Assembly: GCF_003334815.1 (NCBI RefSeq) | Contig: NZ_QOWO01000078.1 | From: Escherichia coli | GTDB lineage: Bacteria > Pseudomonadota > Gammaproteobacteria > Enterobacterales > Enterobacteriaceae | Length of the DNA: 4,207 nt | Direction: 5' to 3' (one strand) | In this document: positions 96 to 258 of the stretch, piece after piece | How positions within the stretch are numbered: position 1 is the first letter of the stretch | Layout of the letters: each line of letters begins with the position of its first letter | Translations under genes and position numbers: made by a program | Notes under the pieces: model-generated | Told to the model about the DNA's origin: nothing | What the model saw: only the letters and a program-made list of their open reading frames with translations | Databases searched by the model: none

Positions 96-126
96 GAAAA
101 CCCACAAGGCCATGCCCCGCATGGCC
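96..126 (-). terminator. Possible weak intrinsic terminator for the minus-strand operon
   Basis: Minus-strand RNA would read GGCCAUG-CGGGG-CAUGGCC (7-bp stem, 5-nt loop; plus coords 108..126) followed by UUGUGGGUUUUC (plus 96..107). The U-tract is interrupted and the element lies about 130 nt past the orf198 stop, so the call is tentative. Confidence 0.3.
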
Positions 127-258
127 GGGTAAAAGCGGAGCCGCCGGCGACTTCCTTATTCCGGCGAGTGCAGAGGACACGCCGCATGACCTCCAGACCA
201 CCCCTGATATGAAACGATCATGATCGGCGTGTCCCTGCGTAAAATATACATGTCTGGT

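Follow-up and report, generated by a model that had tools for sequence, protein, structure and literature searches.

Single-stranded DNA (ssDNA) promoters enable an incoming plasmid to express anti-restriction and SOS-inhibition genes ahead of its second strand, and this early expression makes them a point of control over how resistance plasmids spread. In pESBL, the hairpins located 5' of ardA and klcA are alike in sequence and structure, are unrelated to ssi1-3, and have been named class 2 ssDNA promoters (PMC12672017). Their start sites were mapped by 5' RACE in early transconjugants, and RNA-seq revealed an early, transient induction; the induced pESBL genes form six separate operons, with ardA possessing a start site of its own (PMC12672017). 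In the F plasmid, the ssp2 promoter drives yfgB, which encodes an ArdB-like product, and complementary-strand synthesis stalls at the end of the ssp2 stem until UvrD resolves it (preprint 10.64898/2026.01.09.698686). The same preprint describes a class 3 promoter without roadblock activity.

The DNA analysed here, referred to as the window, is a stretch of 4,207 nucleotides from the leading region of an IncI-complex plasmid (R64/pESBL type). Its positions 1 to about 160, together with about 196 bp beyond its left edge, in all likelihood constitute the class 2 ssDNA promoter of ardA. Positions 96..258 are neither a toxin-antitoxin nor a small-RNA locus; they comprise a spacer and the outermost portion of a hairpin promoter described before. 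Publications of 2024-2026 already cover the element, and the practical gain is modest: correct placement avoids annotation of this stretch as a terminator, small RNA, or leftover toxin-antitoxin module. The only item that is possibly new, and a modest lead, is a common boundary motif at the outer edge of the module.

Plasmid setting and the repeated module

All genes of the window lie on the minus strand, in the order ParB-like gene, psiB, psiA, orf198, 462 bp of intergenic DNA, and ardA, a single strand being used throughout.

4015..2057, minus strand: ParB-like protein, 652 aa
2005..1568, minus strand: psiB
1571..852, minus strand: psiA
259..855, minus strand: orf198, hypothetical protein identified through RefSeq relatives, last gene of the psiB-psiA-orf198 run

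The orf198 product matched no NCBIfam family. Window bases 1-900 were found by megablast in more than 5000 enterobacterial plasmids, and the window shares 96.6% identity with R64 and 95.1% with pESBL-EA11. NZ_CP024481.1, designated L001, served as the reference plasmid for all coordinates outside the window. In this record, an IS21-family element (ISEc12) interrupts the ParB-like gene (L001 14003..18600, approximately window 2057..4015); the copy in the window is intact.

Upstream, in the interval that separates nikA from the leading genes, the plus strand contains the IncI nick sequence ACATCCTG/TC. At L001 6283, also on the plus strand, lies the oriT nick sequence ACATCCTGTC, and the leading genes to its right are all on the minus strand. 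This placement makes the plus strand of the window the one transferred in conjugation, and all genes present here use it as template.

A sequence-only reading of this DNA had described about 260 bp without ORFs after the orf198 stop. The stop codon (TGA, 261..259, minus strand) and the lack of a credible ORF in 1..258 were borne out, and the length was not, as the non-coding DNA runs past the left edge of the window to ardA. An IncI-gamma/K1 plasmid record that is identical across window bases 1-900 sets its true length, up to the ardA start, at 462 bp. The ardA frame itself remains open for about 400 nt 5' of its ATG, across the entire hairpin module (L001 11296..12201, minus strand; a 301-aa ORF with a GTG start), which is probably a by-product of GC-rich sequence.

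Comparison with homologous plasmids, a check that the sequence-only reading had proposed, divided the region in two: positions 1 to about 160 belong to a repeated, widely conserved module, and positions 161..258 are single-copy. The complete module measures about 355 bp. A BLAST search of the intergenic region against its own plasmid found L001 11804..12157 (window -196..157) to be 92.7% identical to L001 21341..21692, and both copies lie directly 5' of an antirestriction gene, ardA in one case and a gene of the klcA/ardB type in the other. The orf198-ardA intergenic region of pESBL is 97.0% identical, and the pESBL klcA copy 93%. F-plasmid ssp2 is 94% identical across the 355-bp module, and the primer sites of preprint 10.64898/2026.01.09.698686 lie immediately upstream of it. 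More distant relatives, at 81-83% identity, occur in Klebsiella grimontii, Entomohabitans, and Erwinia dacicola; candidate 'Frpo' 4' (PMC11541004, supplementary file 4) is 81-82% identical to the module, tail included. The klcA copy, F ssp2, and the 81-83% relatives cease to match at about window 157-165. Across thousands of IncF and IncI plasmids the shared stretch ends at 157-162, and thousands of IncF plasmids match window 1..157 only.

The first hypothesis, a classical Frpo/ssi promoter of class 1, was discarded, as BLAST with five published sequences (PMC11541004, supplementary file 4) produced no match in the window. These five sequences match three other sites on the same plasmid (L001 7751, 10619, and 19548). 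Module-like sequence, mostly 87-97% identical (67% in L006), was also encountered in assemblies labelled as unrelated taxa: Streptomyces morookaense (L006 and L007) and metagenome-assembled genomes assigned to Oscillibacter, Oscillospiraceae, Collinsella, and Lachnospiraceae (L009, L011, L024, L052, and L056). These occurrences most likely reflect contamination or mis-binning.

The probable promoter hairpin and its outer end

The elements recognized between positions 1 and 258 are as follows.

1..92, plus strand: probable non-template (3') arm of the hairpin that serves ardA as class 2 ssDNA promoter, from a long-range inverted repeat, fold, pair table, and 12-homologue consensus
25..30, plus strand: -35-like hexamer TTGCAT on the non-template arm, chosen by eye and from the pair table, 3/6 match to TTGACA
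46..51, plus strand: -10-like hexamer TAAGAT, chosen in the same manner, 4/6 match
100..130, plus strand: two-tier hairpin H1, with outer stem ACCC/GGGT (100-103/127-130) and inner stem (108-115/119-126), followed by UUGUGGGUUUU on the minus strand
131..160, plus strand: boundary motif AAAAGCGGAGC-CGCCG-GCGACTTCCTTATT, marking the end of the repeated module
137-141 and 147-151, plus strand: box 1 (GGAGC) and box 2 (GCGAC) of the motif, then TTCCTTAT
142..166, plus strand: small hairpin CGCCGG/CCGGCG with a 13-nt loop, found by folding, across the module boundary
161..258: single-copy spacer between orf198 and ardA, specific to the IncI complex, forming the proximal part of the 3' UTR in the psiB-psiA-orf198 transcript
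170..238: hairpin H3, long and imperfect, beginning 21 nt past the stop of orf198 and built on a perfect core of 10 bp (175-184/225-234)

Several of these elements were outside the view of the sequence-only reading, namely the larger hairpin at 170..238, the 6-bp hairpin at 142..166, and the fact that 1..92 is one arm of a hairpin of about 270 nt whose other arm is off the window. The pairing partner of positions 1..92 is off-window sequence, about 1-178 nt left of position 1 (L001 11822..11999). A minimum-free-energy fold of the plus strand as ssDNA yields this hairpin at -113.9 kcal/mol (z = -6.1), with a main stem that spans L001 11822 to window 92 and leaves positions 96-258 just outside. 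The consensus structure of 12 homologues contains 81 pairs. In all 12 the plus strand folds more stably than its complement, by a mean of about 9 kcal/mol, and 37 G.T wobble cells of the plus-strand main hairpin correspond to A.C mismatches in the RNA sense. Since the consensus structure was predicted on the plus strand, the energy comparison is a fairer test than the wobble count. These predicted folds argue that the hairpin structure is selected on the transferred strand.

The two promoter boxes are weak candidate hexamers picked by eye, and their sole support is the start site mapped in pESBL. TTGCAT is conserved in homologues save for its last base (alignment A3), and the TAnnnT pattern of the -10 is kept in all family members collected. 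In the predicted pairing, the middle bases AAG of TAAGAT face AAA in a 3x3 internal loop, so that the -10 would be pre-melted. Between -35 and -10, the non-template arm has a spacer of 15 nt and the opposite (template) arm one of 20 nt. IncK2/Z-type copies (L094, L096, and L009) present a 5-nt bulge on the non-template arm instead, the sides being swapped and the total length kept (window 31-45).

The best-conserved part of the module is the apical 120 nt of the class 2 hairpin (L001 11889..12008, window -111..8; alignment A3, columns 85-204). Among the 12 homologues, 101 of these 120 columns are invariant, versus 38/57 and 39/67 in the stem arms. A coding explanation was rejected, as no frame shows an excess of synonymous changes, and the frame of a 73-aa plus-strand ORF is lost by a 1-nt indel in 9 of the 12 sequences. 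Because no reading frame carries coding-type substitutions, the apical conservation is at the nucleic-acid level.

Beyond the stem, the module extends about 65 nt past its published limit, and this extension bears a conserved hairpin along with a motif found in all promoter classes; the portion of PMC12672017 available to us describes neither the outer hairpin nor the boundary motif. In the inner stem of H1, two base pairs are exchanged as a whole (C-G for A-T and G-C for T-A) with pairing retained, in two sequences of alignment A2 and three of A3. The outer stem is retained among relatives with differing sequences, such as CACC/GGTG, TTTACCC/GGGTAAA, and TCACC/GGTGA. Of the options raised by the sequence-only reading, that of the 5' part of a downstream module is the correct one, 96 to about 160 being the outer (upstream) end of the ardA promoter module.

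The boundary motif consists of an A-rich stretch, GGAGC, a short GC-rich spacer, and GCGAC. In classes 2 and 3, (A/T)TCCTT comes next, and its complement, UAAGGAUGU, is close to a perfect Shine-Dalgarno sequence. The arrangement GGAGC-N(0-14)-GCGAC occurs at the transferred-strand 3' (outer) edge of all six ssDNA promoters of the IncI leading region, comprising three of class 1, two of class 2, and one of class 3. All four ssDNA promoters of F share this arrangement, versus 0.3-0.4 expected from shuffles. The sites are located at L001 8055, 10921, 12137, 19855, 21672, and 24240 (L001 plus strand), at L002 1926, 7314, 9135, and 11706, and at window 137-151. Altogether, 55 distinct family members, spread over many enterobacterial genera, contain the motif at a distance of 49-106 nt from the -10. 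At the class 3 promoter site, 5' of a DNA methylase gene, a CDS for a 'hypothetical protein' is annotated across hairpin and motif (L001 23996..24307, L002 11461..11766), which may be an over-annotation.

A role of the motif as a hairpin or terminator was discarded after 45 instances had been folded, since the structures were weak and inconsistent. The hairpin at 142..166 is not general to the module, because its 3' half lies in the IncI-specific part. In some distant subfamilies, pairing of the motif with the 5'-UTR flank is convincing, with z = -4.2 in L072 and a 10-11-bp match to the ribosome-binding-site complement in L015 and L048; for ssp2-type motifs, pairing with the 5' flank was no better than in shuffled controls. 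The motif presumably bears a resemblance to boxA and to the CsrA binding site, and a literature search by motif sequence returned unrelated papers only. Box 2, as found in most family members (GCGACATCCTT), has ACATCCT in common with the IncI oriT nick region (L001 6283 versus window 147-157). A link between the two was rejected, as MOBF F plasmids, which use a different relaxase, have the motif too, and the likeness is probably a coincidence.

The remaining DNA, 161..258, occurs in 1883 plasmid records at 1906 places, with a single occurrence in almost all of them, and all records examined show it in the orf198-ardA context. It is missing from the klcA copy and from F. H3 has no U-run after it, and no -35/-10 pair could be placed by eye that would give it a hairpin-promoter role. 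As a selected structure H3 was likewise rejected, the IncK2/Z relatives having gained C.A and A.C mismatches without compensation. In NZ_CP060509.1 (L097), a TnpB-family insertion sequence sits in the H3 loop (at about window 207) and replaces the rest of the spacer together with orf198. The segment 161..258 is provisionally treated as an ordinary 3' UTR of the upstream operon, in which the alignments give H3 no sign of selection for structure.

The class 2 promoter of ardA would operate as follows. During conjugation, the window plus strand would enter the recipient single-stranded and fold into the hairpin of about 270 nt, whose stem would rebuild a sigma-70-type promoter (-35 TTGCAT at 25-30 and -10 TAAGAT at 46-51, with its pre-melted bubble). 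Host RNA polymerase would initiate within the stem and transcribe leftwards into ardA; once the complementary strand has been made, the promoter would be gone, a loss demonstrated for the 97%-identical pESBL orthologue and, as regards the family, in F. For the present ardA copy, the start site and the ssDNA-only, transient activity are inferred by homology to its orthologues. The tail at 96..160, comprising H1 and the boundary motif, may insulate the promoter hairpin, a role suggested by anatomy only, as the tail lies beyond the stem and precedes the start site. Read as mRNA, H1 and its U-rich tail could function as a leaky terminator that halts polymerases arriving from orf198 before the hairpin is unzipped. 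On the single strand, the tail would be the junction first reached by complementary-strand synthesis.

Competing explanations for positions 96 to 258

The hairpin at 108..126 had been read as a weak, marginal terminator about 130 nt from the orf198 stop and followed by an interrupted U-run, and this description is accurate. Positions 108-115 and 119-126 are fully complementary over 8 bp around a loop of 3 nt; the hairpin is 133 nt away from the stop codon, and the minus strand beyond it reads TTGTGGGTTTTC. A plain account would take this hairpin as a simple Rho-independent terminator of psiB-psiA-orf198, with the rest of 96..258 as ordinary 3' UTR unlinked to the promoter. The GC-rich 8-bp stem with its U-rich tail on the minus strand, the preservation of the stem by compensatory changes, and the division of the induced pESBL genes into six separate operons, ardA having its own start site (PMC12672017), all speak for it. 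The terminator scores are divided. On a d'Aubenton-Carafa-type score, the window version has a tail T of 2.4 and a discriminant of about -5, just under the threshold. Four of six variants (the window and three others) are negative, and two homologues, L064 and L076, reach +19 with UUUU after the stem. Against a plain terminator, the consensus scan found no terminator site in 1..900, the U-run is lost in L079, and the hairpin is copied together with the promoter (klcA copy, F ssp2), irrespective of which gene lies upstream. In the class 3 promoter, the corresponding hairpin, as read from the sequence, also has no U-run. A plain terminator would further leave the module boundary at about 160 and the motif unaccounted for. 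As a full account of the region it is unlikely; as a sub-function it is compatible with the class 2 promoter reading.

Another candidate considered was a small regulatory RNA or one component, antisense or toxin, of a hok/sok (flm/pnd)-type module, given that a flm locus of the hok/sok type follows psiA in F. The region is structured as RNA (z = -4.3), and 96..258 folded as ssDNA reaches -36.6 kcal/mol (z = -5.2), a stability attained by none of 200 shuffles. Nevertheless, the structure conserved in the module favours the plus DNA strand over the RNA sense. The consensus scans of 1..900 for promoters and terminators found nothing in 1..258, the single promoter-like site lying at 728..755. The Rfam search that the sequence-only reading had suggested was run over the whole window up to E = 10 and returned only three chance-level matches, outside the region. 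Four ORFs of at least 20 aa touch 1..258, two of which overlap the coding end of orf198. A 25-aa ORF (122..45, minus strand) has its start codon inside the 108-126 hairpin; as a small peptide it was rejected, since its ATG is missing in L064, L076, and L079 (81-83% homologues), and the region contains no conserved ORF. Hok-family genes are annotated elsewhere in IncI plasmids: a PndC gene lies beyond ardA, and a Hok/Gef-family gene is found elsewhere on pESBL. The sequence-only reading had recognized no hok/sok-type module, which agrees with the lack of a Hok-like ORF, and its small-RNA option did not survive these searches. This explanation is highly improbable and close to refuted.

A third account holds that 96..160 acts as DNA on the transferred strand rather than as an RNA signal, either as an entry or recognition site for a protein or helicase (SSB, UvrD, RNA polymerase, or a leading-region protein) or as a junction that sets the roadblock. 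The conservation of the motif core across three otherwise unrelated promoter classes, with no consistent hairpin, speaks for such a site. The 5' flank is also predicted to pair with GCGG of the motif in a 4-bp closing helix, whose T.G pairs only the plus strand can form. Moreover, the nascent strand of F ssp2 stalls at the stem end, which adjoins the tail (preprint 10.64898/2026.01.09.698686). However, the helix comprises only 4 bp and was itself predicted on the plus strand; the changes in it are one-sided (U.G in seven sequences, C-G in five), and none is compensatory. No binding protein is known, and because the class 3 promoter has the motif and is reported to lack roadblock activity (preprint 10.64898/2026.01.09.698686), the motif cannot be the roadblock determinant. 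We regard action at the DNA level as possible, with low confidence, and the protein-binding option of the sequence-only reading may thus apply to the boundary motif at 131..160. In a similarly tentative manner, the motif at 131..160 might represent an undescribed functional signal, an insulator or a recognition site for a protein or helicase, that delimits each zygotically induced cassette of enterobacterial leading regions on its upstream side.

Comparison with described promoters and terminators

H1 resembles Rho-independent terminators in having a GC-rich stem-loop and, in the transcribed sense, a U-rich stretch after it. It differs from them in that its U-run is interrupted (UUGUGGGUUUU), its score is at or below the threshold, and it moves with the downstream promoter and not with the upstream gene. 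Candidate 'Frpo' 4' comes from a conjugative element of an insect metagenome, a different host and plasmid, and was proposed from structure and hexamers, with no experiment (PMC11541004).

The Frpo/ssi1-3 promoters of class 1, such as F ssiD and ColIb-P9 ssi, share with the present locus a transferred-strand hairpin that mimics a duplex promoter, the leading-region location and orientation, and the GGAGC-N-GCGAC outer edge. Their hairpin sequence is not homologous to that of the module, and none of the three class 1 copies of the plasmid falls in the window.

The class 2 promoters of pESBL located 5' of ardA and klcA (PMC12672017) are orthologous, with the same orf198-ardA position, the same strand, and a large stem-loop bearing candidate -35/-10-like boxes. 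There is no substantive difference from them; the window simply contains only the 3' arm and the outer tail. F ssp2 is alike across the module, H1 and boundary motif included, and also drives an anti-restriction gene (yfgB/ArdB). It differs in lying upstream of yfgB and not of ardA, and in being the one copy in F, compared with two in IncI. The roadblock and its dependence on UvrD have been shown for the F ssp2 copy only, and IncI-complex plasmids possess two copies of this element, which acts as a replication roadblock in F.
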